Shown: piece by piece, positions 25,267-39,355 of the stretch
How positions within the stretch are numbered: position 1 is the first letter of the stretch
Layout: each line of letters begins with the position of its first letter
Sequence record: OP870143.1
DNA from: Escherichia phage vB_Eco_F22
Direction: 5' to 3' (one strand)
Length of the DNA: 64,000 nucleotides
Translations under genes and position numbers: made by a program
Notes under the pieces: model-generated
The model's input: only the letters and a program-made list of their open reading frames with translations
The model's database searches: none
Told to the model about the DNA's origin: nothing

Positions 25267-25437
25267 ATGAACAAATTTACTATTCACTGGCTCAATGGAA
25301 AGGTTAGTTCTTTCATGGGTGGAGAACCTGCTGAAGGAAACAAAGCATTCCACATTGATTCAGAAGGCTGCAAAATCTTAATACCATATGCTTGGTATAA
25401 AGATGGTGAAGTTGAAGCATTAAAAAAGAGTAGTTAA
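25267..25437 (+). CDS. small hypothetical protein (56 aa, not in the ORF track)
   Basis: ATG at 25267 read by hand to TAA 25435-25437; weak purine-rich RBS. Confidence 0.25.
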   Translation: MNKFTIHWLNGKVSSFMGGEPAEGNKAFHIDSEGCKILIPYAWYKDGEVEALKKSS

Positions 25438-25865
25438 TATCGTGAAGGGTTCTGTCAGAATCCTTTGAGATAGGAACTCCTATCATAACCTTTCTTAACT
25501 TAATCTTTGCCGTATGGCACTGACGCTAGGGGTGGCCCCCCATCCGTCAGACAGACTATTTTAAGAATGGGTTATCTCAGAAAATGTAAAGCAACATTCG
25601 GGTTAATCAATGGCCTCTCCTATAGAGGCCATTTCTGAATCTTAGGCTATATCCCAAAGGTTAATATCTTTGGGATAAGGCTTCAGATCCCTTATCAAAC
25701 TAACCGCTCAATGTTGAGCATTTTAATCACATAAGCCCCTATATGGGCTGGGTTAAATGTCGGATAGCATAGCTACCTACAGCATCGAATTGTTAGGTCT
25801 TACATGCAATATAGGGTATAAAGGGAGGACTCGTCCCCTCCCTCCTATTATGACATCCTATCAAT

Positions 25866-25929
25866 GAGTACACTTCAAGTGGTAGGCCTGCCGCTCTTGA
25901 AATTCATCTGCAAAGCTGGAAGTGTACTC
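25866..25929. repeat. 11-bp perfect inverted repeat separated by 42 nt
   Basis: gagtacacttc (25866-25876) and its exact reverse complement gaagtgtactc (25919-25929). Confidence 0.8.
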
Positions 25930-26109
25930 TTTGATAGTTTTCGTAAGCGATTATGCGGTTTTTTAGAAACGAACCAATAACATAAATGCAAACGATGATG
26001 TTGTTCTGATGGCAGCCTAATAAGCCAAGCGTCAGTCAGGAGTGAGTCGTCCTGATTATCAAACGACCGTGGAGTACTCCCGTCCATGTATTAGAAACGG
26101 GGGACCAAT

Positions 26110-26476
26110 TACCAGTTGCACGAGATGGCTTGACATGTTCAAGTTTGGACTAAGTGTGACACCGCTAGATTGGAGGGCTGCTGCGGTAAGCTATAGACTC
26201 CAACCGGAGGTTCGAATCCTTCACTGGTAACCAATTCAAAGTAGCACTGCATAGAACGCGAAAAGGTACAGCGACGTTAGCCATACGGTATTGTGAGGTT
26301 CGAGTCCTCACCTATGAGCAGTGACGACTGCAACAGTGCTACTCTGAATTGGAAGAATTAAGACGGGTCTGGTGAAGTAGATGGGGTTCGATTCCCCCAG
26401 GTGGAGTAATCCACTAGCGTGCTTGGTGCACGAATAAGACTTAATACTGGTGGTTCGATTCCATCCCCCGTTACCC
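26110..26476 (+). ncRNA. cluster of tRNA-like structured elements (T-arm-like hairpins; canonical cloverleaves not confirmed)
   Basis: Four T-arm-like hairpins with GGTTCGA(A/T/G)T loops at 26206-26222, 26294-26310, 26382-26398 and 26449-26465; acceptor-like long-range stems (taccagt/actggta, gtagcactg/cagtgctac, gacggg/cccgtt) enclose ~100-125 nt units rather than ~76 nt. Confidence 0.3.
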
Positions 26477-26667
26477 AAAGTCGCCAGGTACTTATGGCAA
26501 ATGGGTAGTAACGAACTAGTCATTCGTCAAACGCCCACCTAATTACGAGTCAGCAAGAACGCCTTCATTTAAACTTAAACAAAAAAGCTTAACGCAATAA
26601 TTATGTAGGGGTATGTAAGGATTGCGAAGAAGGAGCCAGTTAGAGCCTGGCATGACTCACCCATTAT

Positions 26668-26743
26668 GTCCACTTAGCTTAGACTGGGAAAGCAACCGAC
26701 TAATAATCGGAAGGTCACTGGTTCAAATCCAGTAGTGGACACC
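26668..26743 (+). tRNA. tRNA (cloverleaf folds by hand; anticodon reading uncertain)
   Basis: Acceptor gtccact/agtggac 7/7 bp, D-stem gctt/aagc, T-arm actgg-ttcaaat-ccagt, discriminator A then CC; anticodon stem has 4 of 5 pairs and the loop ctaataa gives an unusual AAT anticodon. Confidence 0.5.
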
Positions 26744-26977
26744 TATTCAGCAGTAACATAGTCCTGATTGCATAGCACTCTAAAGACAACACTGGTAAGA
26801 CAGTCCAGTGGCTGCTAATGTATTGTTATTCCCCTCGACGGGAATTTCGCTAGTGAAGGTAACACTTAAAAATCCAAAGCTACGTCTTACTACTATCGGG
26901 CTATCAACCCACGGTCGCTTAACCCTATAGCGGTAGTAGTTTGACGGCCTGCCTCGTTGACTGCGTTAAAGTCACTA

Positions 26978-27016
26978 AGTCCCTCGGAGCCGTCACTCTG
27001 GGGGACTTTTTTATTT
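26978..27016 (+). terminator. Rho-independent terminator closing the RNA island
   Basis: Stem agtccc...gggact followed by ttttttat. Confidence 0.5.
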
Positions 27017-27041: not shown

Positions 27042-27200
27042 ATGATTGACCTAATCTTAACACCGTATGCCTATGAGGTAACGGATAACCAAGGACGTAA
27101 GTCTTTGGTGTTTGCAGGTAGCGTAGCCTATAACAACGCAGTCATGTTTAAATACAAACTCAAACCACTCTATGAGGCTAATAATGGCAACAGTAAGTAA
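27042..27200 (+). CDS. small hypothetical protein
   Basis: Internal ATG of track ORF 27015..27200, placed after the terminator; 52 aa. Confidence 0.3.
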   Translation: MIDLILTPYAYEVTDNQGRKSLVFAGSVAYNNAVMFKYKLKPLYEANNGNSK

Positions 27201-28475: not shown

Positions 28476-28510
28476 TAGAAGCCCCTCATTAGAGGGGCTT
28501 TTTTATTTTA
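28476..28510. terminator. bidirectional Rho-independent terminator between convergent genes
   Basis: Hairpin aagcccctc-atta-gaggggctt flanked by A-tract on one side and ttttttatttta on the other; the vRNAP stop codon lies in the T-tract. Confidence 0.7.
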
Positions 28511-31500
28511 GTTTACCAGGTTCATCCAAGGGTTCAGGTTGTGAGCACGTAGACCTTGCCCAAAGCCCCATGAGTAATCCAGCCCACCCTTAGCAGCAAT
28601 GCTAAAGATGTTGTCCTGAATAGGCAGACCAACATTACCAAACATGGTAGGAGTTGGAGCCAGCATTGCCATTGCTGCATGCACCGGGTTATTACGAATC
28701 ATGGACACTGCAACCTTAGCTGAACGAATCTTAAAGTTGTAGAACCACATCAAACCAACACTTTCCATATACCCACGGAAGCGACCTGGTAAACGGTCAT
28801 AGTTAACAAACTCTTCAGTTACACGTCCCAGTGCTTCTTCACGAGTCTTACCTTTACGCTGAGTCAATTCATCATAGATGATTGCTTTAGCGATAAAGTC
28901 AGAGTACTCAACTGTCTTTTGGATACCCTGGAACAGAGCAGTATCCTTGGTGATAAGTGCATAACGTCCAGCAGTACGTACAGACTTAGGTAACTTATCT
29001 GCCAGCTTTTCCATATATTCGTGAAGTTTGCCTTCAGTAATCAGAATGTCATCACGACCGATACCAGCATCTGCAATTGAAGAGAACTCACCAGCTTCCA
29101 ACAGAGGCCAGATGCTCATACGCTTATGGCTATCAGTAATGGACTGAATCTCAGCCTTAAGTTTACGAATCTGGTTCGGGTTAGTAGCTGCACGTAATTC
29201 TGCTTCTGCATCTACCTGACGCAGACGAGATTTCAGGTACTGGTTAATCTCAGCAGTTTTCTGTGGAATGCTTTTAGCAATGTTCTTAACCGGTACACCA
29301 CGGGCAACCATCTGGTAAAGGTTAGCCAAGAAGTTAACAGCAGGTACGACTACTGACTTAACTACAATCAGAGTCTTGGCTTCTTTAACTAAGTTTTGAA
29401 CCAGGTTCTCACCACCCATTGTGTACTTATAAGCACGGTTGCCAAATACACCCAGCATAGCTTTCTTGAAGGTATCCAATGTTTCCGGGGACCAACGAGA
29501 ATTACCAGACCAGGCATCACCTACAGAAGCTGCACGATAACCAAGTGCATCATTCAGCATGTCACGACGCACCCACAGTTCACCCTCACCAAACAGACTT
29601 TCTGCTTTCTGACGTGTTTCACTGTTCATTAGCTTAAGAGCATCAGCAGTTACTGGGTCCAGTTTAGAACCAAGAAGGTTAACGTACTGGGATTTATTAG
29701 AGGCAGACATCTTAATGTCGTTCTCATACATGCTATGCAGGTTCTCAATCAACATATTGTTGAAACGCTGAGCCTTAGCTTCTTCCACCTGACGACCACG
29801 CCATACACCAATTGCACGGGCAAGGTGATTCTCGCCTTCAATGTGCTTCAGCATGTTAGGGTCAATGGATTGCTCATAGGCAACCACATTACCTTTGTCA
29901 TCATATACAGGCAGAAGTGGTTCATTACCACGTTCACCACGAGCCAGTGCTTTAGTGATACGGTCTACGGAAGGCTTGTCAGTAATACGACCAGCTACCA
30001 TCGAACCCATCGTAAAGCCCGTACCGATGTCTACACCACCAGCAGTATTACGAACGTTTTGTAGGATACCCTGTGAGAAAGGAGCCTGTGCCTGTACCGG
30101 TGCGAAGTAGTAGCTGCGTGCTGGACCACGGTTAGCAGAGCTACCTTGATAAGTACCCAGACGTACATAAGATTTCTCAATCAAATCTCCAAACTGGCTA
30201 TCTTCAGCAACAATCAGATTAACACCCTGTTTAGTCTCACTAGGGATATGCCCTTTGTACTGGTTCAAGGTTGCACGCATATCAGACTTGGCTTTAGCCA
30301 TTTCATCTTTACGCTGACCAACCAGGTAAGAAGTAGCAAAGTCCATTCCATCAACTTCTGTCTGAGCCAGAGAAGATAACATCTCACGGTCGGACTTGTT
30401 CATTGCTTCCAGTGCATACAGGGTAATCAGTTTATCCAGTTGAGCTACATCTACAGTAGAACGAGCAGCCTGACGTTCACCAAGCATACGAGAGATTGCA
30501 GTAGCATTACGCAGCAGGTTATTACCGACTGTACCGTTAATCATGAACTGAGCCAGTTGCTTAGATTTACGACTAATAAGAGGCCAGTTACGACCAGCTT
30601 GTTTCTGCAAATCTGCTTCCAGCTTATTCACTTCACGGTCAACAATCTTCTGGTCAGATAGTAGGTCACGGATTTCAGCCAGAGACATAGTGTCACGCAG
30701 AACAGCTAAGTCAGTTTTACCCATGCCAGTGTGCATTGCTTTCCACTCATCGTTAGTCAGCTTACGGCTGAACTTAGATGCGATAGTGGTAGGCAGGTGT
30801 TCACGGAATTGCTGACGGTCTGCTTGTACCTGTGCACGAACTGCTTTAATCAAATCGTATACAGAAGCATTACTCTTAGTACGACCAGTTAAGTCATTAA
30901 CCAGGTCATGGAAGGGTTGCCATACCTTACCCTGGTTCATTGCAGCCATAACACCTTCAGCTACAATTGCACCATTCTTCTCAGTAGCAATAGCAGCCAC
31001 CAATTGTGCAGCATGGGCAGCACCTTTAACCAATGGATTCTTAGTATTAGCTGCAACTTCGCGAGCACTTTCTAAAGCACGAGTAGACAGTGCATCAATA
31101 GAATCCACCAGATACTGGTTAGCACGATCAATAGCATTACCACTAGGAGTAGCAACGGAATCATAGAATGACTGTGCATTGAGGCTAGTCTGCATGATTG
31201 TCTGAGCCAGTGCATCCATACCTTCCTGTACGTTGGTAGCTTTAGTGTCACCTGCTACACGGGCATTCAAGCTAGACATTGCAGCAGTACCAATGTTAGT
31301 CAGCATTGCATCAATGGTATTACCGGATTTCTTATCTGCTTTCATAACAGGAATGTTAGCCAGTACGTTACGTACCTCTTCACTTACCATTGCCAGACCA
31401 ACAAAGGTAGGCAGTAAGGAAGAACGACCCTGTGCATCAAACTCGATATTGTTAGCACCCATGATGGTATCGAACTTCTGCTGTGCATAGTAACGGTCAG

Positions 31501-34500
31501 CAGGGTTGGTACTATCCGGGTCAGCCATGAATGCTTCAACGGTCAGATTCTTAGTAACGTGTGCATAGTATTCCTGTGCACGAGATAGAGCAGCCGGACT
31601 AATAGCAGCCTCAGTAGCCAAAGCAGCAACGATATTAGTGAACAGGCGTTGTTCCTGCATATTCATAGTGAAACCATGAGCCTGAACATCACGGGTTACT
31701 TTAGTAGCATTCACTACTGCATCAGAGAACTTACCTTTACGAATTACTTGTTGCACTGGTTCTGAACCAATGTAGTTAGTAATCAGCTTATCAAAGGTCT
31801 GCCCCAATTCTTCCAGACGGGTATTGTCGCCATACGCCTTGTTATGGAACAAGGTAGTGTCCTTGGATACAGCAGCCGTAGGAGCCTGCCCACGCATAAC
31901 TACGGAAGAGTTAAACAGTAAGCCAGAGAACATATCATCTGCATTAGCAGGAGCTTTCTTACGACCGAATACCAGACGCTTGATTGCTTCATACACAGAC
32001 TGAACCATAGTCTTCAGTGCAGTAGTCTTCTTCTGCTTACTAATTAGTTCACGGTTGGTTAAGCCCCAAGCCATGTATTCGTTCAGTGCAGCAGCTTTAG
32101 CCATTGCCGGTTCAATGAAGCCATTAGACAAGTGACCGTTAATGGTATTGAGTGCATCAGCATATGCTTCACGTACTGCCGGGGTTTCATCCTTAACATC
32201 CAGAGTACGGAACTGGTTCATCAGGTCTTCAATATTCTGAACTGCTTCATTAGGAGTACCCTCATAATGAGCCAGTACAGATTCAAAAGTAGAAGCATGT
32301 ACCAATTCATGAACCAGAGTCTCTAAGGAAGGGGTAACTAAGTAGATGGTCTTATCATCAAAGTTAGTCCAGCCATATGCATTACCAGCTTCGGCAGCTT
32401 CAATATCTTCCGGTGCTGGGCGAGTAATGTTCTTCTCAATAGCATAAGCATCCAGCTGAGCAGGAGTACCGTAAACAACCTTGTAGTCTTTAGCAGCAAG
32501 GGATTTCTGTACTTCTTTCAATACCGCTTGCTGTTCAGGAGACATCTCTTTAGCCAGCTTAGTGATAGCAGTATTAGACAGCAGACGTACACCAGACTTC
32601 AGTACACGACCAACCTGTTCCATTGCTGGTACTTCTTTAACAGGTGTTTCTTCAGCAGGTACTTCTTTCACTGGTTCTGCTTTAGCAGCACGTACTGCAT
32701 CACGGCGCTTATTTAATTCGGCATCAAACAGTTCGTTTAGCTTAGCTACTTGCTGGTCTACAGTCAGACCTTCCAGAGAGATTTTACCGTTGTTCACATA
32801 AGGAGCACCTACAGCAGCCATCTGGTCAACAGTGGTCTGTACCTGGTTCATTACTTTGTGGCGAATATCTACACCTAAAGCAATGTTACGCAGATTACGT
32901 TCAATGAGGTTAACACCGGATTTCTCAATCATATCAATCTTATACTGCCTGTCTCCCTCAACACGACTGATATGGGAAAGCTGTTCAAAATCTAAAGCGG
33001 AACGAGCAATGTCATCAATTGTCTTATCTGACAACTTATTAAAGTCTACGTTCTTCATGAACTTAGAGAAGGAGTCATACACGTTCTTAATAGGATTGCC
33101 CTGCCAAGAAGTATAAACAGCCTCATTAGCTTTACGACTTGCATCAGTGATGTCATTGATACCAATGTTCATACCATCAAAGATTTTCAGGGTATTCTTC
33201 GGAGCACCTTTCATAGTAGAAAGGGTCTGCATCATCATGCCATCACCAGTACCAATGGTCATAAATGGAATACCTGCAACACCTGCTTGTGAAGGAGCAT
33301 AGATGCTCATTGGCACACGCATACGGTCGTCTAAGTTGGTAGCCAGTACTTGGTTAGCAACATCAGTATTCTCACTGCCAGCAATGTAAAAAGTCTGTGA
33401 ACCAGTCTCAATCATTGGAGCCAGTGGAGACAGGGATTTCTGAATTTCATTCAGCTCTTCCTGTGTTAAGAAATCGCCCTTCTTCCAGGTTGGGTCTTTT
33501 TCTTTTTCTGCCAGTTTAGCCTGTACTGCTTGTTGGAACATATCCTGCAATACTAAAGACTGAATTTGAGTAGCCTTCTGCAAGTTCTCAGTGGAGTGCA
33601 TCAGACCTTCACCAACGGTGAACCGGATACTTTGTCTCATTGGTTCAACGAAGAAGTGCAACATGTTCTCTTGTAGGTTCTTAAGAGCATCACCAGATAC
33701 AGTAAACTCCTGGGGATCTAACTCACCAGTCAGAGCACCATCTACTTCCTTAATAAATAACTTACCTTTACGCTTAGCTGGAATCTTACCAGTCAGTGCT
33801 TCCATAGAAGTAAGGAAGGTATCCAGCATAGCCTGAGCATCTGCCTCAGACGCAGCCTCCTTACCAAACAATGCCATAGCTGGGGAAATGCTAGGGTCAG
33901 TAGCACGTGCTTGTAGAACGTCACTGAGGCGTTCGTAGATGGCGTCAGTAATTGCACTAACCATCTTGCCAGCAATACCACGAGCACCAGAACCATAGAT
34001 GGTAATGGTCAGGGGGTTTTTAGCGATGCCACGTTTCAGGTCCAGAGTACCGTCTTCATTCAGGTTAAAGTCTTTAATGAACAGGTCCATTAGCTTCTGG
34101 AGATGATCCATCTGGCTCATAACAGGAACGTTGTTACGGTAAGCACTACGTAATTCATTTAGATAGAATTGCAAACTATTGGTAGATGCTTCATACAGGT
34201 CAACATTATCGTCGATAGAGCAATGTTCGTTCATCGTTTTACCAGCACGACCAAAGAACAAACCACCCTTGGCAGTATTCTTAATCCAATTTGGAGTGAA
34301 CTTACCTCCAGTCATTAATACCATTGCGTTGATTGGGCCGTTGGTTACACCATCGGCTTCAACGTACAGAGGAGTATTAAAATTAGCACGGTTATCACTG
34401 TTCAGGTAACGGGCATATTCCATCAGAGCCATGAGAGCCACGAAGGATTTGTTATCACCCAAAGAGGTCTTCAGGATATCTACTGCATCTGTCGGTAAGT

Positions 34501-37500
34501 GCCCAGACTTATCAAACTCAACCATCATATCAACAGCAGGTTTCAATTTGCCTTCCAGAGCTTTAGTCAACTCTTCAGACATAGCTTCACGGGACATTTT
34601 ATGTACCTTGATGCCTAATGCCTGAGCCAGTCCTAACTGGAAGTCAGAGAACGCTTGGCTATTTTCATTACTCAGGTCAATAGTAGAGAAGGTTGGCAGA
34701 ATTGCTTCACGAACCAGCTTACTGGATTGTGGGTTGTTCTTACCAAGCATCTGCATACGACCTACTCGGGTCATGTTATAGCCATAGTGAATGGGGGTAT
34801 CCAAACCATTCTCTTGTTCTTTTAGATGATTAATTAAACCGAACAGAGAATCATATGCCATAGATACTGATAAGTTCTTACCTTCCAGTGATTTAGCATT
34901 ATTTTTATTCAGCAAATCAGGATTAAGAGTACCAGCACCCATTAGTTCCAGAATGCTGTCTCGACCCAATGCTTCATAGAAGTTAACCATCGGCATGTGT
35001 ACACGGAACTCAGTAGCCTGTTCAGCTTTCAGTGCAGCTTTCTGTTCGGGGGTATTCTTAACAGCAGGATTACGTAACTGAGTTTGGGCCACGGAAGGAA
35101 TGTCGTCACCAAAGTACATTTTCTCTTCCGGATTTACCAACACAGCTTCTTCAATTGCTGTAGGGAAATTATTAATAGGGTCTTTATCAGCCAACTTATT
35201 AATAGTGTACAGACCAATAGTCTTATTAGAGTCCGGGTCAATCTCAGACACATCCAGCATAGTCTCTGTAACTGCACCCATCTCAATGAGGGAAGACAGA
35301 ATCTCTGTAGCCATTGCCACTGGAATGCCTTTTGTATAACCCAGTGGTGCATTAGGGTTACGATTCAAACCCCAATAAGATTCAATCTTCTGAGCCAGTG
35401 AGCTAGTAGCTTCGACCAGGGTCTGGGCATTCTCAAATTCAGCCAGAATACTTTCTGGTAACAAGGATGCTTCTACTCCAGTAATGGCAGCTACGTCTTT
35501 TATGTCTTTAATGGCAGCATTCTGTGCAGCAGTCAGTCGCCATTGCAGACCAGCAAGCACGGCAGTCTCTAACAACTGGTCATTGAACTTAAAGGTATCA
35601 CCATCTTTTTCAACGATATTCAGCAGTTTGCCACCTACCCAACGGTTAGCTTCAGTACCTTCTGCAAAACGTTTACCAACGTTCTTATTAGCAAGGAACT
35701 TAGCCAGTCGTTCAGACAGAGTAGTCTTCAGTGTTTCCCCAAAGTCCATCAAATCTTGGTAACGTTCTAACACATCACCCGTGAGAGCGTTATTTTCTTT
35801 TTGAGTGAATGCTTCAAAGCGAGCAGCAGAAGACAGTGCTTGCTTAATATCAGCTAAAGGAGATTCAGAACCAATGGTACGGGACTTGGGTTCTTCTGGC
35901 AGGGTAAATGCTTTCAGGAACTGGTTCGGTGTCTTTTCATTGTTATAGACAGGGAACACTGTTTCCATCTCAGAAAGAGGTTTGCCACCTACTGTATAAT
36001 CTGCTTTTAGCTGAGCCAGCGATACTTCATCTTTCTCCACGTTGTTAGTGTTACGGCCAGAGGTATCTACACCAACCAGAATCTGTGCATTATTGGCTTC
36101 AACGAAAGATTGAACAGTATTGAATTGTTCAGCGGTCAGCTTTTGATTATCAAACAGTTGTAGGGACACAAACGGTTGTTCACTGCCTTTATAGAAAGTA
36201 GAGCGAATAGAACCAGTATCCAAAGACATATCACGATAGCCATCATGCCCAAATACGTCAGACAGGCTGATATGGTCGCCATTAGAACCAACCACAGTAC
36301 CATCAGCAAACAACCACGGACTCTCTCTACGGTCACCACTCTTATTAAGAGTTTCCTGTGAAATGGTATTTTCTTTCACATAAGCATCTCTTTCAGATTC
36401 AGTAGGTTGCTCAATGGTATCCTCATTAGTGAGGGTAGCATCTACTGTTTCAGGCTTAGTAGTAGAAACTTCTTCTGTTTTTGGGCTAGTCTCCTTAGTA
36501 GGAGCAGTCTTATTTTCTACCACTGGTTTAGCTTTAGGCTGTACAGTAGTAGTGTCCTCTTGCACTGGTGCAGGAGTTTCATCAACCTGATTCACTGGTT
36601 CATTAGTCTGTTGAGACTGAGTGGCATCAAGACCACCTTGACGGAACTCTTTAACTACCTGGGCAGCAGGCTTGTTCAGACGTGAATCCAACGAGGTAAC
36701 TTTCACATGAGAAACATTAAGCTCCGGGTAAGCCGTAGCAAGTGCATTAGCAATATCAGCTACGGTTTTGGCCTCCAGTCCTACTTGCTGTGCAAACTTA
36801 ACAGACTTGGTATCGTAAGGATTAACACCGAGGCCAGTACGACTACGTACCCATTCACGGGAAGGCGAGAGAGCCTGATAATGAACAGACTTATTCTTAT
36901 CCGCATTCCCCGAAATCAGATGCTCATTCAACGCTCCGACCTTATTCTGCATGTGCTGGGCGAACTTCATAAAGTCGCTCAGATAAGCGGAGGCCAAATC
37001 GAAGTTACCAGAGTTATACGCAGAACGAATGCGTTTCGCATGTTGCAACGCAGAGTACTGTCCTTCATTAGAACGAGACTCGTCGGTTTTAATCTGTTTA
37101 CTAACAATGTCTTGAGGACGTAAGCCTAGTTCTTCTGCTTTAGCGTCGAACTCTCGTGCACCCTGTAACAAGGCAGCAGCAGATTGCAGGGCAGCACGTT
37201 GACGATTCCCCAGTGTAATCTTACCTTCGCTTGCGTGCTTCAGAACCATGTTCACTGAATCTGCATCCAGTACTTCTGGAGATACATCAGCAGCCATAGC
37301 AATGTTGTTTGCTTGGGCTTGATTAGCTTCTTCAGTAGCTTTCAGCTTACCTGCTTCAGCCTGTTCCTGAATCATAGAATGGATGGCACGGAATGCACGA
37401 AGTACTTTAGGGGTATTCTGTACGTTAGCCATCAGACCAGAGAACTGGTCTACGATTGCAGCAGCAGGGGAACCCTGTTCCAGATTAGCCAGAGCACCCG

Positions 37501-39355
37501 GGTCACGGTTAATGAAGCTATCCATGGACATGATGTTGTCATACATCTGGATTGCAGCTTCCATTTGAACGTTAGGGTCTTCGGCAGTATTAACCAGGTC
37601 AGCCATCTTCTGAATAGCTTCTACACGGTTAGTGGAACCAGAAACAGCTTCACGGATTACTGGGTTAGCTTGTTCCAACTCTACCGGGTCGAACTTCATT
37701 GCCTGAGTTAAGTCAGCAGCATACTGGGTAGCAGCAGCTTTCTCTTCCGGAGAAATATCCATTGCATCTACTGCTTCCTGTACAGTTGCTTGTGCTTGTT
37801 CTGCCTGAGCAGCAGCTTCCTGTGCAGCAGCATTAACCGTAGCATCAGCTACAGGGGATGCTTGTTCATTACGCTTGGCAACTTCTTCACCACGTTGAAC
37901 CAGAATGTTAGTAAGAGGAGATGCAGCTTTTGCTAGTGTTTTACCAACCAGAGAAGCACCAGCCAGGGTAGTACGAAGAGTAGGGCCAGCAGCAGCACCG
38001 GCAGCTTTAACAGTTGCACCAGGGACTTGAGCAACTCCAGCACTACCGAAGCCATAAAGTGCACCAAGACCTGCTTGCTCACCAACCCCTTTGAGGGTGT
38101 CACGGGATGCATCAACGTTTTCTTTGATTGCAGTATTCTGTGCGAACTGACCAAAGCCGGATTGAATACCTTCCTCTACAGTTTCACGCAGCATATTAGA
38201 ACCAGCACCTGCCAGTGAACCTACCTTAAGTGGGTTAAGTTCAAAGCGAGATACCAGTGGGCCGGTAGCAGCAGCAACTGGAGCAGTTAAGCCAGCAGCA
38301 ATGATACCTGTTTCAGATGCAGTCTGACGACGTGCTTCATCAGGAGATAAACCATCAGCAATATGCTGTTGGTAAACAGGAGACTTACTTGCCAGTTCTT
38401 GGTGGGACATCTTCATGATTTCAGAAGCAGTCTGTTGGTATGCACCACCAGCTTCCATACCACCGATTGCAATAGCAGGTGCAGCAACACGACCAGCAGA
38501 CAGTGCAACCTGTGCAGGACGTGAACCTAACCCAGCAGCTAAGGTAATACCCTTAACAGCTTTATCACCACCTACCATTACTTTACCGAGTGCAGATACA
38601 CCACGAATAAGTGGACCACCGGTAAAGAGGGAACCAACACCTTCACTCAGTCCGTCAGAGGCAGCCATACCATTATCAAGTGTATTAGCAACAGAATCGA
38701 AAGCATCACGACCAATACGAGACAAGGAGGCAACCAAATCGTTCTCCCCATTTTTGATGTCTTGTTCATAAAGTTTCTGATTCTTTTGAGCAGAAATCTG
38801 GTTCTGATTCTGAACAACCTTACGGGTAGCATTCAGTGCATCAGACTGTAGATTGTGTACGCCTTCATTCAACCAATCCATCCCGGAAGCAATGGTTGCC
38901 CCGGCATTATCATTGACCAAACCTGTGCCAAGAGCAGCAATGCCCCCAAGGGTATTAGCAACACCAAGACCAACACCAGAAAGAGTATCGCCAAATGCTT
39001 CTGCGTTAGTACGTTGTTTAGATAAGTCCTGACGTACAACATCCGCAGCATTAGCTCGGCTATTAAGAATTTGTAGACCTTGCTCATTACCGTATTTATT
39101 AATGATTTCTAATGGGGAGGCTTGAGTGAAATCTGCCTGAAGTGAACCTGGTTCGAATGCACCGATTCCAAGATTACCTACACGTCCGGTCTGGAGATTG
39201 TAAGCATTCTCTGGGGTTAATTGGAAAGGGATTTGCCCTTGTGCAGCTTGCTTCTGAGAGGTTGCAGTAGAGACATCGACTCGCTTAGCATTAGTGATGC
39301 TGTCTGCGAAACCTGCCAGACGGTCAAATGTTGACATAGCATGTTTCCTGTTCAA
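28508..39355 (-). CDS. virion-encapsidated RNA polymerase (giant vRNAP, N4 gp50-like)
   Basis: 3615-aa ORF; single-subunit RNAP-like motifs in the central region: motif A-like LYVEADGVTNGPINAM, motif B-like K-x-PLTITIYGSGARG; first gene of the late block. Confidence 0.8.
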   Translation of the reverse strand: MNRKHAMSTFDRLAGFADSITNAKRVDVSTATSQKQAAQGQIPFQLTPENAYNLQTGRVGNLGIGAFEPGSLQADFTQASPLEIINKYGNEQGLQILNSRANAADVVRQDLSKQRTNAEAFGDTLSGVGLGVANTLGGIAALGTGLVNDNAGATIASGMDWLNEGVHNLQSDALNATRKVVQNQNQISAQKNQKLYEQDIKNGENDLVASLSRIGRDAFDSVANTLDNGMAASDGLSEGVGSLFTGGPLIRGVSALGKVMVGGDKAVKGITLAAGLGSRPAQVALSAGRVAAPAIAIGGMEAGGAYQQTASEIMKMSHQELASKSPVYQQHIADGLSPDEARRQTASETGIIAAGLTAPVAAATGPLVSRFELNPLKVGSLAGAGSNMLRETVEEGIQSGFGQFAQNTAIKENVDASRDTLKGVGEQAGLGALYGFGSAGVAQVPGATVKAAGAAAGPTLRTTLAGASLVGKTLAKAASPLTNILVQRGEEVAKRNEQASPVADATVNAAAQEAAAQAEQAQATVQEAVDAMDISPEEKAAATQYAADLTQAMKFDPVELEQANPVIREAVSGSTNRVEAIQKMADLVNTAEDPNVQMEAAIQMYDNIMSMDSFINRDPGALANLEQGSPAAAIVDQFSGLMANVQNTPKVLRAFRAIHSMIQEQAEAGKLKATEEANQAQANNIAMAADVSPEVLDADSVNMVLKHASEGKITLGNRQRAALQSAAALLQGAREFDAKAEELGLRPQDIVSKQIKTDESRSNEGQYSALQHAKRIRSAYNSGNFDLASAYLSDFMKFAQHMQNKVGALNEHLISGNADKNKSVHYQALSPSREWVRSRTGLGVNPYDTKSVKFAQQVGLEAKTVADIANALATAYPELNVSHVKVTSLDSRLNKPAAQVVKEFRQGGLDATQSQQTNEPVNQVDETPAPVQEDTTTVQPKAKPVVENKTAPTKETSPKTEEVSTTKPETVDATLTNEDTIEQPTESERDAYVKENTISQETLNKSGDRRESPWLFADGTVVGSNGDHISLSDVFGHDGYRDMSLDTGSIRSTFYKGSEQPFVSLQLFDNQKLTAEQFNTVQSFVEANNAQILVGVDTSGRNTNNVEKDEVSLAQLKADYTVGGKPLSEMETVFPVYNNEKTPNQFLKAFTLPEEPKSRTIGSESPLADIKQALSSAARFEAFTQKENNALTGDVLERYQDLMDFGETLKTTLSERLAKFLANKNVGKRFAEGTEANRWVGGKLLNIVEKDGDTFKFNDQLLETAVLAGLQWRLTAAQNAAIKDIKDVAAITGVEASLLPESILAEFENAQTLVEATSSLAQKIESYWGLNRNPNAPLGYTKGIPVAMATEILSSLIEMGAVTETMLDVSEIDPDSNKTIGLYTINKLADKDPINNFPTAIEEAVLVNPEEKMYFGDDIPSVAQTQLRNPAVKNTPEQKAALKAEQATEFRVHMPMVNFYEALGRDSILELMGAGTLNPDLLNKNNAKSLEGKNLSVSMAYDSLFGLINHLKEQENGLDTPIHYGYNMTRVGRMQMLGKNNPQSSKLVREAILPTFSTIDLSNENSQAFSDFQLGLAQALGIKVHKMSREAMSEELTKALEGKLKPAVDMMVEFDKSGHLPTDAVDILKTSLGDNKSFVALMALMEYARYLNSDNRANFNTPLYVEADGVTNGPINAMVLMTGGKFTPNWIKNTAKGGLFFGRAGKTMNEHCSIDDNVDLYEASTNSLQFYLNELRSAYRNNVPVMSQMDHLQKLMDLFIKDFNLNEDGTLDLKRGIAKNPLTITIYGSGARGIAGKMVSAITDAIYERLSDVLQARATDPSISPAMALFGKEAASEADAQAMLDTFLTSMEALTGKIPAKRKGKLFIKEVDGALTGELDPQEFTVSGDALKNLQENMLHFFVEPMRQSIRFTVGEGLMHSTENLQKATQIQSLVLQDMFQQAVQAKLAEKEKDPTWKKGDFLTQEELNEIQKSLSPLAPMIETGSQTFYIAGSENTDVANQVLATNLDDRMRVPMSIYAPSQAGVAGIPFMTIGTGDGMMMQTLSTMKGAPKNTLKIFDGMNIGINDITDASRKANEAVYTSWQGNPIKNVYDSFSKFMKNVDFNKLSDKTIDDIARSALDFEQLSHISRVEGDRQYKIDMIEKSGVNLIERNLRNIALGVDIRHKVMNQVQTTVDQMAAVGAPYVNNGKISLEGLTVDQQVAKLNELFDAELNKRRDAVRAAKAEPVKEVPAEETPVKEVPAMEQVGRVLKSGVRLLSNTAITKLAKEMSPEQQAVLKEVQKSLAAKDYKVVYGTPAQLDAYAIEKNITRPAPEDIEAAEAGNAYGWTNFDDKTIYLVTPSLETLVHELVHASTFESVLAHYEGTPNEAVQNIEDLMNQFRTLDVKDETPAVREAYADALNTINGHLSNGFIEPAMAKAAALNEYMAWGLTNRELISKQKKTTALKTMVQSVYEAIKRLVFGRKKAPANADDMFSGLLFNSSVVMRGQAPTAAVSKDTTLFHNKAYGDNTRLEELGQTFDKLITNYIGSEPVQQVIRKGKFSDAVVNATKVTRDVQAHGFTMNMQEQRLFTNIVAALATEAAISPAALSRAQEYYAHVTKNLTVEAFMADPDSTNPADRYYAQQKFDTIMGANNIEFDAQGRSSLLPTFVGLAMVSEEVRNVLANIPVMKADKKSGNTIDAMLTNIGTAAMSSLNARVAGDTKATNVQEGMDALAQTIMQTSLNAQSFYDSVATPSGNAIDRANQYLVDSIDALSTRALESAREVAANTKNPLVKGAAHAAQLVAAIATEKNGAIVAEGVMAAMNQGKVWQPFHDLVNDLTGRTKSNASVYDLIKAVRAQVQADRQQFREHLPTTIASKFSRKLTNDEWKAMHTGMGKTDLAVLRDTMSLAEIRDLLSDQKIVDREVNKLEADLQKQAGRNWPLISRKSKQLAQFMINGTVGNNLLRNATAISRMLGERQAARSTVDVAQLDKLITLYALEAMNKSDREMLSSLAQTEVDGMDFATSYLVGQRKDEMAKAKSDMRATLNQYKGHIPSETKQGVNLIVAEDSQFGDLIEKSYVRLGTYQGSSANRGPARSYYFAPVQAQAPFSQGILQNVRNTAGGVDIGTGFTMGSMVAGRITDKPSVDRITKALARGERGNEPLLPVYDDKGNVVAYEQSIDPNMLKHIEGENHLARAIGVWRGRQVEEAKAQRFNNMLIENLHSMYENDIKMSASNKSQYVNLLGSKLDPVTADALKLMNSETRQKAESLFGEGELWVRRDMLNDALGYRAASVGDAWSGNSRWSPETLDTFKKAMLGVFGNRAYKYTMGGENLVQNLVKEAKTLIVVKSVVVPAVNFLANLYQMVARGVPVKNIAKSIPQKTAEINQYLKSRLRQVDAEAELRAATNPNQIRKLKAEIQSITDSHKRMSIWPLLEAGEFSSIADAGIGRDDILITEGKLHEYMEKLADKLPKSVRTAGRYALITKDTALFQGIQKTVEYSDFIAKAIIYDELTQRKGKTREEALGRVTEEFVNYDRLPGRFRGYMESVGLMWFYNFKIRSAKVAVSMIRNNPVHAAMAMLAPTPTMFGNVGLPIQDNIFSIAAKGGLDYSWGFGQGLRAHNLNPWMNLVN

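Follow-up and report, generated by a model that had tools for sequence, protein, structure and literature searches.

In a permuted tmRNA gene, the helix that precedes the pseudoknot PK1 is helix 2, and its apparent 'loop' houses the tRNA-like domain. T4 species 1 and 2 (RNA C and D) and YrlA (Y-RNA-like) are stable non-coding RNAs of other kinds, the T4 ones being co-transcribed with phage tRNAs and released by processing. The phage tmRNAs described in surveys carry both domains, or the tRNA-like domain alone (PMC4131195, PMC11915505). The tmRNA of mycobacteriophage DS6A, which has the tRNA-like domain only, is reported to inhibit tmRNA (PMC4131195, PMC11915505), and a phage-borne two-piece tmRNA is known from a marine methylophage (PMC9004378). 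Here we describe a conserved unit having the mRNA half only, in P1, N4-like and Ackermannviridae phages, which would extend the catalogued kinds of phage tmRNA. Full-text literature searches on the tag peptides, phage tmRNA-like RNAs and the P1 dicF/ban region brought up no relevant paper.

The stretch analysed, called the window throughout, is 64 000 nt of Escherichia phage vB_Eco_F22 (OP870143.1), a G7C-like N4-type coliphage of the genus Gamaleyavirus; the region of interest is 86-96% identical to that of PhAPEC7, UE-S5a, Bp4, ECBP1 and St11Ph5. Genes of the gp44, SSB/gp45, gp46 and gp47 types and a 56-aa ORF run along the + strand and end at 25437, and from there about 1.7 kb holds no convincing gene until the gp48-like ORF at 27172. 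The virion RNA polymerase ORF (3615 aa) lies on the - strand at 28508-39355. An earlier note had marked 25440-26100 as a hairpin-dense non-coding island between the replication genes and a tRNA-like cluster. That placement is confirmed, with the SSB/gp45-, gp46- and gp47-like genes on the replication side, and the island indeed has no convincing ORF, the longest being 43 aa on the + strand and 70 aa on the - strand; its right border falls 3 nt short, as the functional unit extends to 26103. One island ORF only has a PHROG match (36 aa, 25757-25867, phrog_37481, function unknown in PHROG), and its frame is not preserved in a Suseptimavirus copy of the same DNA. ARAGORN at default settings called a single tRNA-Ile in the gap, at 26668-26743. 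Degenerate tRNA-like pieces and long stems abound in the cluster around the island. A strong terminator at 26977-27008, annotated as such at the equivalent site of PhAPEC7, is the likely end of the non-coding transcript. No sigma-70-like promoter was found on the + strand of the island, and given this and the terminator the block is most simply taken as the tail of a rightward transcript. The features are as follows.

25438-25857, + strand: conserved stem-loop block of at least two modules, putative RNA (fold z-score, conservation, compensatory changes)
25470-85, 25609-33, 25639-88 and 25823-42, + strand: hairpins of the earlier note within that block, seen in the sequence
25858-25879 / 25916-25937, + strand: long hairpin around the 11-bp repeat, with 22-nt arms that are 91% complementary
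25937-26103, + strand: tmRNA-like unit (PK1, GCA resume codon, tag frame, helix 5, two pseudoknots)
25937-41 / 25966-70 and 25951-55 / 25981-85, + strand: PK1, with S1 GUUUU / GAAAC and S2 UUAUG / CAUAA
25988-26023, + strand: tag frame GCA AAC GAT GAT GTT GTT CTG ATG GCA GCC TAA TAA, encoding ANDDVVLMAA and two stops
26006-26035, + strand: helix 5 analogue with the stops in its loop, CUGA 26006-09 / UCAG 26032-35 and GGC 26011-13 / GCC 26024-26
26036-26067, + strand: pseudoknot PKa, S1 UCAGGA 26036-41 / UCCUGA 26050-55 and S2 GUCG 26046-49 / CGAC 26064-67
26068-26103, + strand: pseudoknot PKb, S1 CGUGGA 26068-73 / UCCAUG 26083-88 and S2 CUCCCG 26077-82 / CGGGGG 26098-26103
26110-26233, + strand: tRNA-like RNA of 124 nt with an encoded ACCA end, T arm GGAGG-TTCGAAT-CCTTC, then ACTGGTA-A-CCA
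26977-27008, + strand: strong intrinsic terminator, 13-bp stem with a T run

The tmRNA-like unit was detected with a permissive Rfam scan, in which tmRNA_permuted (RF04321) matched 25898-26020 at 38.8 bits (E = 6e-6 to 1.7e-5). This is below the gathering score of 47, and the Rfam threshold for tmRNA was not reached; RF00023 and RF01850 gave trivial matches only in the window. UE-S5a scored 32.7 bits with the same model, and over seven related loci Rfam returned tRNAs, one weak tmRNA_permuted match and nothing else. The well-aligned stretch runs from the A-rich pre-resume sequence to the UAA (AACAUAAAU-GCA AAC GAU GAU GUU GUU CUG AUG GCA GCC UAA), and in the cmscan alignment 94 model positions of the tRNA domain are replaced by 7 nt. 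When ARAGORN was relaxed to -ps80, and at that relaxed threshold only, it reported a 'resume consensus' and the tag ANDDVVLMAA with two stops, together with unconvincing tRNA domains. At default settings it found no tmRNA in 132 family loci with 1.5-2.5 kb of flank.

The mRNA half of a tmRNA is present element by element. PK1 stands shortly 5′ of the resume codon, ending 2 nt before it in the window and 2-6 nt before it across the family; the resume codon (GCA 25988) has no start signal and opens a short tag frame closed by a stop; and helix 5 encloses the end of the frame and the stop and is followed by pseudoknots, two of them and not three. The tRNA-like domain, with a 7-bp acceptor stem bearing G3·U70, a T arm and a 3′ NCCA, is lacking in cis, as is the permuted arrangement of an upstream acceptor piece, an intervening sequence and a coding piece. 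Conservation between lineages is confined to about -57 to +141 around the resume codon. Small structured RNAs had been listed in the earlier note as one of four possible roles for the island, and this is the sole one to hold, with stems that are conserved, several that covary, and G·U pairs that point to + strand RNA; what was missed is the nature of the RNA, which immediately 3′ of the inverted repeat is a tag-coding unit resembling tmRNA.

That repeat, described as an 11-bp perfect one, has its arms at precisely the positions given, 25866-25876 and 25919-25929, 42 nt apart, and is the core of a covarying helix of 19-22 bp. Among 12 N4-like relatives 95.2% of the cells are paired, against 28-53% with the partner slid; 6 of the 19 pairs have a double-sided change, and none of 500 shuffles scores as high in covariation. 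The relatives have many U·G and G·U pairs, and since these are mismatches in DNA or in the opposite transcript, the helix is selected in + strand RNA. It is through such pairs that the helix is conserved, and the perfect 11 bp of the window is thus, on this comparison of sequences, one state of a conserved RNA helix. The loop is variable (26-63 nt, of differing sequence; 34-36 nt without a T loop where the acceptor piece of a permuted tmRNA was tested). The long hairpin ends at the base before PK1 and appears to occupy the position of helix 2 of a permuted tmRNA. Many prophage copies have long 'cassette' stems upstream of the unit, and the 3′ strand of these (CAGUGCUCUUUCC...) is similar to the 3′ arm of the long hairpin (UAGUGUACUCUUUGAUAG); phiMAM1 and Ag3 have long stems of their own at the equivalent place.

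The helices of the unit itself were followed across the family. PK1 S2 occurs as CUUUG/CAAAG (46 distinct cores), ACUUUG/UAAAGU (26, P1 type), UUAUG/CAUAA (window type, also phiMAM1) and, in a fourth version, UAUUUU/AAAAUA (Michonne). PK1 S1 is nearly invariant and therefore compatible only. In helix 5 the outer stem changes from A-U to G-C in 10 of 24 sequences, and the inner stem is found as GGC/GCC, GCC/GGC, GCG/CGC and UAGCC/GGCUA. The 3′ half of the unit falls into two types, A (window, P1, phiMAM1, KP8 and 7-11) and B (Sa179lw, St11Ph5, Michonne and most prophage copies). The type-A helices were tabulated by anchored extraction; a MAFFT alignment put the P1 rows one column off. All four 3′ stems of type A are kept paired by compensatory changes, one stem reading, for example, UCAGGA/UCCUGA, ACGGGG/CCCCGU or CGAGGG/CCCUCG. 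Variants of PKa S1 are AGUCAGGA/UCCUGAUU, ACGGGG/CCCCGU (P1), AGCGAGGG/CCCUCGUU (phiMAM1) and AGUCAGGG/CCCUGAUU (KP8), all paired; those of PKb S1 are CGCAGA/UCUGUG, CAUGGA/UCCGUG and CGUGGUG/UACCAUG, and those of PKb S2 are UCCCCGU/ACGGGGA and ACCCCU/AGGGGU. The type-B 3′ half (24 sequences) has 97% of its cells paired, against 32-50% in slid controls, with double changes in 11 of 21 pairs and a covariation score that none of 500 shuffles reached. Folding and covariation against related phages, which the earlier note had proposed as a check, thus found the stems conserved, several with compensatory changes.

The tag frame has neither a start codon nor a Shine-Dalgarno sequence. Among 136 loci there are 31 distinct 33-nt versions coding for about 20 peptides, always of 10 codons followed by UAA, with no indel or internal stop in any. 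The other two frames are closed in 25-30 of the 31 versions, variation at codons 3, 4, 9 and 10 is mostly at third positions, ANDDVVLMAA alone has eight synonymous spellings, and residues 5-10 are hydrophobic in this frame only. Other tag peptides include ANDDLMMVAA (the tag of P1), ANEEMYLAVA, ANDEQFLAVA, ANEEAYLMVA and ANDNAYLMVA. Among the distant members, 7-11 has ANDNAFRVAA and Michonne has ANDNVFLAVA, and altered first codons occur (GCA to GCU, AAC to AAU), as in PhaxI, which begins GCU AAU... and encodes ANDSEVLMAA. An alternative AUG frame (AUGCAAACG...) was rejected; its products of 5-13 aa are not conserved, and it is closed in 30 of the 31 versions. The constraint on the tag frame is of the protein type, and the frame appears to be under selection as a peptide; as evidence of translation this is strong but not conclusive, because part of the frame overlaps helix 5. 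The constant length and codons 7-10 are partly explicable by the structure of helix 5 alone. Every family sequence inspected by eye has an A at position -4 relative to the resume codon; we take it to be the counterpart of A86 in E. coli tmRNA, a base that acts through SmpB to set the frame, and its conservation suggests frame setting of that type.

When the island was used as a BLAST query, only 25920-26110 of the window matched very different phages. These are P1, SJ46, Serratia phage phiMAM1, Ackermannviridae (Ag3/PhaxI and others), the Klebsiella N4-like phage KP8, 7-11, FSL SP-058 and Michonne, with further matches in Buchananvirus Sa179lw and many siphophages of about 46-58 kb from Klebsiella, Escherichia and Salmonella. 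The matching unit is about 170-180 nt long and 70-98% identical across unrelated phage families, in flanks that are unrelated. A 174-nt core as query hit 398 of 50 697 phage records, and a family-specific pattern hit at least 120 IMG/VR contigs and 6 of 185 579 species-representative genomes, five of them Enterobacterales. The unit is carried by 649 of 5426 complete E. coli genomes (about 12%), at 547 places on plasmids and 150 on chromosomes; among the matches listed, the carrier plasmids measure 80-117 kb, the size of P1-like plasmid prophages. At nearly all loci the unit lies in or beside a tRNA cluster on the same strand. The P1 copy lies in the ban operon leader, with the 'dicF-like region' terminator immediately upstream and tRNA-Asn and tRNA-Thr downstream. 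None of the matches listed has an RNA annotation on the unit, which bears no feature or a few short 'hypothetical protein' calls, and the E. coli RefSeq copies among them likewise have no annotation or 'hypothetical protein'. Small ORFs have been called in such gaps, the Mimir124 and Bas96 records being examples, and are probably false calls; annotation pipelines gain a new ncRNA family.

The conserved unit contains no acceptor stem, T arm or T loop, G3·U70 pair or conserved CCA end, and a search for a 5′-strand partner beside a T arm returned only an internal GAAACUG-ACCA. That segment lies 11 nt ahead of the resume codon and, if it were an acceptor 3′ end, would pair with xxGUUUU, but it failed covariation: mismatches are common at pairs 1:72 and 2:71 and no compensation is seen, 3:70 is G-C, no T arm lies between the strands, and Michonne lacks the ACCA. 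Direct reading of the sequence shows a promoter-like site abutting PK1 in Sa179lw (TTGACA-17-TAGATT) and in Michonne (TTGACA-17-TAAGAT), and with a sigma-70-type promoter in that place the RNA cannot carry a 5′ acceptor strand. In P1 a terminator abuts PK1, and in some lineages the helix preceding PK1 is missing altogether.

Further acceptor candidates were also rejected. The loop of the long hairpin and the GGGAGG hairpin, as a degenerate T arm or acceptor, have unfit spacing and loops, and loop content varies among relatives. In P1, CCGGAAACGUACCC before tRNA-Asn is suggestive as a helix-2a partner of GGG-UUUUCG, but the changes in locus L019 are uncompensated, there is no covariation, and other lineages have no equivalent. 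Pairing with the host E. coli ssrA gave whole-length duplex energies no better than those of shuffles, and a 7-nt match (UGAUUAA / UUAAUCA) is within chance. The 124-nt tRNA-like RNA at 26110-26233 has an acceptor stem that covaries (TACCAGT/ACTGGTA in the window, TACTGGT/ACCAGTA in KP8, TATCAGT/ACTGATA in UE-S5a), with no G3·U70 and no alanine identity, and is absent after the unit in P1, Sa179lw and Michonne. It was rejected as a tRNA domain in cis on these grounds, being neither conserved with the unit nor supplied with G3·U70, and on topology, which would make the tag region a 5′ leader; it stands as a candidate partner outside the conserved unit.

Upstream of the helix, all four stem-loops quoted in the earlier note are present, although the GGGAGG/CCTCCC hairpin has a loop of 8 nt and not 7. 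The hairpin density is real: 25438-25857 folds at -145.9 kcal/mol on the + strand, against -106.6 ± 6.2 for 100 dinucleotide shuffles (z = -6.4), and at z = -7.3 on the - strand. The nested fold of 25852-26108 is less extreme (z = -2.3) because much of that segment is pseudoknotted. Across 7 Gamaleyaviruses with diverging flanks 25438-25700 is nearly invariant, and the roughly 150 nt that follow split into two types. The GGCCTCT/AG(A/G)GGCC stem has a T-A to T·G change among Gamaleyaviruses and the GGGAGG/CCTCCC stem has three compensatory changes in PGN829.1, both of which fit + strand RNA. The segments 25438-25487 and 25690-25845 recur in Suseptimavirus 101114UKE3 at about 83% identity. An Rfam scan of the block found no matching family. 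The block consists of further mobile RNA modules. A repeat search of 25400-26150 returned seven inverted repeats besides the long one.

Two readings at the level of DNA or of promoters had been raised for the hairpins. A replication origin, a cruciform or a protein-binding palindrome would account for the perfect 11-bp palindrome-like repeat in the window's copy and for the adjoining replication genes. The cumulative GC skew, proposed as a check for an origin at the island, peaks at about 28 kb, where the coding strand switches; 25300-26100 contains neither iterons nor arrays of direct repeats; G·U and U·G pairs, mismatches in DNA or on the other strand, maintain the helix in relatives; and the module sits at unrelated positions in unrelated phages, away from the replication genes in P1, Sa179lw and Ackermannviridae. 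For individual hairpins a regulator binding site is conceivable, though nothing points to one. We consider a DNA-level element very improbable. N4 virion RNA polymerase promoters have a stem of 5-7 bp, a 3-nt loop and conserved flanks, and serve early genes at the left end of the genome. The phage encodes such a polymerase, of 3615 aa, and the hairpin at 25447-25461 has a 3-nt loop. It is the only one in the island that does; the others have loops of 4-8 nt and long stems, are common to phages without this polymerase, and lie in a region that closes the middle/replication gene block and is not at the early left end. Measured against these general features, and not an exact consensus, loop sizes and location do not fit, and hairpin promoters of the N4 type can be almost wholly discounted.

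Among readings of the unit as an RNA, we somewhat favor that of a tRNA-domain-less derivative of the coding piece of a phage two-piece tmRNA, serving as a tag template in ribosome rescue with the acceptor provided in trans. The island would then form the 5′ part of a non-coding RNA cluster of 1.5 kb that shares a rightward transcript with the replication/middle genes and the tRNA and tRNA-like genes and is cut into separate structured RNAs. From 25858-26103 would come a tmRNA-like RNA with the long helix, PK1, GCA, ANDDVVLMAA and its two stops in helix 5, and two pseudoknots. The tag frame would be translated, by trans-translation, on rescued (non-stop) ribosomes of the infected cell, and SmpB and an alanine-accepting tRNA-like part would be supplied in trans, by the host tmRNA system or by a phage tRNA-like RNA. 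A decoy or inhibitor that mimics the mRNA-like half of tmRNA and binds S1, RNase R or the mRNA channel of stalled ribosomes, its frame never translated, would instead damp or redirect host trans-translation. The lack of a tRNA-like domain agrees with this, as do the conservation of the first four codons and the pre-resume stretch at the nucleotide level and the mirror case of DS6A, whose tRNA-like-domain-only tmRNA is reported to be inhibitory (PMC4131195, PMC11915505). We judge a decoy unlikely: it would not call for variation of the synonymous type, for an open frame fixed at 10 codons, for a hydrophobic end in Ala/Val-Ala, or for the closing of the alternative frames.

The frame looks translated, and the conserved unit opens with PK1, whose end lies 2-6 nt ahead of the resume codon and at which promoter-like sites would start transcription in two lineages; all of this would fit an acceptor-independent template switch. 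PK1 and its flanking helix would then dock on a ribosome with an empty A site and mRNA channel, and ordinary Ala-tRNA would read GCA and translation proceed to the stop, much as in IRES-like or 'trans-mRNA' entry. The conserved A at -4 suggests SmpB-type frame setting, and we know of no bacterial precedent for such a switch, which seems to us quite improbable. Equally little weight goes to structured spacers or processing signals of a tRNA operon combined with a decaying, functionless tmRNA relic. The degenerate tRNA-like pieces and the long stems of the cluster, the latter plausible RNase III sites, agree with that history. A relic does not explain identity of 70-98% across unrelated phage families with unrelated flanks, a promoter of its own in Sa179lw and Michonne, five helices maintained by compensatory changes, or the lack of any broken frame in 136 loci.

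A more novel proposal is an 'acceptor-less tmRNA' family, namely phage RNAs of about 180 nt that have their tag translated on stalled ribosomes although no tRNA-like domain is joined to them covalently or stably. The RNA might borrow the entry of host Ala-tmRNA/SmpB, or dock directly in an empty A site. We hold this proposal tentatively and rate it doubtful; if true, the mechanism would be categorically new, a new way to switch the ribosome to a second template, present in P1, N4-like and ViI-like phages and many siphophages of Enterobacterales. If the unit is functional, phages would reprogram or supplement ribosome rescue and proteolysis tagging during infection, and a tag template without an acceptor of its own would be directly testable in E. 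coli with P1.

Compared with known systems, the unit has opposite content to the DS6A RNA (PMC4131195), also a phage half-tmRNA, which has the tRNA-like domain and lacks a tag frame. The T4 stable RNAs and YrlA resemble the neighbouring long-stem tRNA-like cassettes, none of them carries a tag frame, and Rfam found no family of T4-type stable RNA or YrlA here. E. coli SsrA shares with the unit an A at -4, a frame flanked by a pseudoknot on its 5′ side and further pseudoknots on its 3′ side, double UAAUAA stops and similar tags (ANDENYALAA, against ANDDVVLMAA and ANEEAYLMVA). It differs in having a tRNA-like domain, three 3′ pseudoknots where the phage unit has two, and 363 nt against about 170, and there is no detectable sequence homology outside GCAAACGA.

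The closest likeness is to two-piece permuted tmRNA (RF04321, RF01849-51; viral loci L030 and L088 in IMG/VR), which has the same AUAAAU|GCA AAC GAU. In common are a 10-codon tag with a hydrophobic-Ala-Ala or Val-Ala end and its stop inside helix 5, a PK2 of the form AGGU..UUCCG..CCUU...CGGA, and a long helix before PK1. Inside that helix the canonical permuted genes have the T arm, the acceptor 3′ strand with CCA, an intervening sequence, the GGGG acceptor 5′ strand and GGAUUCGA, whereas in the phage unit the helix is capped by a variable loop of 26-63 nt, or there is no helix. Canonical permuted tmRNAs on other viral contigs have the tags ANDNSYRMVA and ANDNAFLMAA and a PK2 of AGGU-UUUCCGG-UU-CCUU ... 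AACCGGA. Given tags and PK2 so similar on viral contigs, these canonical viral genes are a plausible ancestor on sequence grounds, and loss of the tRNA-like domain from such an ancestor would be the simplest history of the unit.

Across seven Gamaleyaviruses the 265-nt stretch at window 25438-25700 is near-invariant and is more strongly conserved than the flanking coding genes, while the sequence adjacent to it has diverged. A structured module (25438-25487 plus 25690-25845) has ~83% identity to Suseptimavirus 101114UKE3, an unrelated podophage (locus L239, 1470-1720). This common module is interrupted in the window by an insertion of ~200 nt.

One short reading frame and one RNA are considered individually:

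25757-25867, a 36-aa ORF with a match to phrog_37481
26110-26233, a 124-nt tRNA-like RNA; its acceptor stem is 7 bp long, its T arm is canonical and its ACCA end is encoded

The ORF is kept open among Gamaleyaviruses. The Suseptimavirus copy has a 7-nt indel that shifts the frame across conserved bases, and in St11Ph5 the ORF would have to run through inserted tRNA-like sequence. The frame is unlikely to be a gene.

Downstream of the tmRNA-like unit, the acceptor stem of the tRNA-like RNA shows covariation among relatives, and ~90 nt separate its acceptor 5′ strand from its T arm; ARAGORN made no call for it at default thresholds. The T-arm motif GGTTCGAnTCC occurs four times within 26207-26463, at spacings of 88, 88 and 67 nt, and the second occurrence lies inside a cassette (26240-26343) whose closing stem, AGTAGCACTG / CAGTGCTACT, has 10 bp and is perfectly paired. 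Taken together, these features resemble a row of degenerate tRNA-like cassettes. Immediately 5′ of tRNA-Ile is the motif ATGTAGGGGTATGT (26603-26616), found also in Sa179lw (L005, ~2895) and in 12 further family loci, that is, loci carrying the tmRNA-like unit; it seems to be a further RNA module that travels.

Long cassette stems, CACAACAGGTAAGGGCATTG ... CAGTGCTCTTTCCGTTGTG, recur in P1 (L003), L018, L067, L084, L128 and ~95 more loci. Their inserts are variable; many resemble tRNAs, combining GCGACGTCGGAGATCGCC with a T arm. Wobble pairs in the stems are consistent with plus-strand RNA. One cassette of P1 overlaps the annotated plp CDS region on the opposite strand. In P1-like contigs (L003, L019, L032 and L138) the first tRNA 3′ of the tmRNA-like unit lies at ~+401 to +480 from the resume codon, and its leader and its acceptor stem do not change between contigs (GATGGTG...CACCATCGCCA). 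Depending on the contig, this gene is tRNA-Asn or tRNA-Arg, as though by an exchange of the anticodon arm. Some Gamaleyaviruses (St11Ph5, L128 1898-1969; L204) have a 72-nt 'tRNA-Ala(cgc)' inserted immediately 5′ of the long hairpin that precedes the unit. Because its acceptor stem has U3-A70, this insert is without alanine identity.

Protein genes were also noted in two other phages. The Citrobacter phage Michonne has a DUF2828 'RNA-binding protein' (L249, 1-825), which may be Ro60/TROVE-like, adjoining a cluster of 25 tRNAs that contains the tmRNA-like unit. In PhAPEC7 (L001, 1-987) the annotation splits a gp44 homologue by a putative intron with its own ORF.

Canonical permuted (two-piece) tmRNA genes, with tags of 10-14 residues, are present on many viral contigs, among them the IMG/VR contigs L006, L030, L033, L088, L101 and L104. 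ARAGORN called no tmRNA in several contigs whose tag is similar (L013, L071, L098 and L107).
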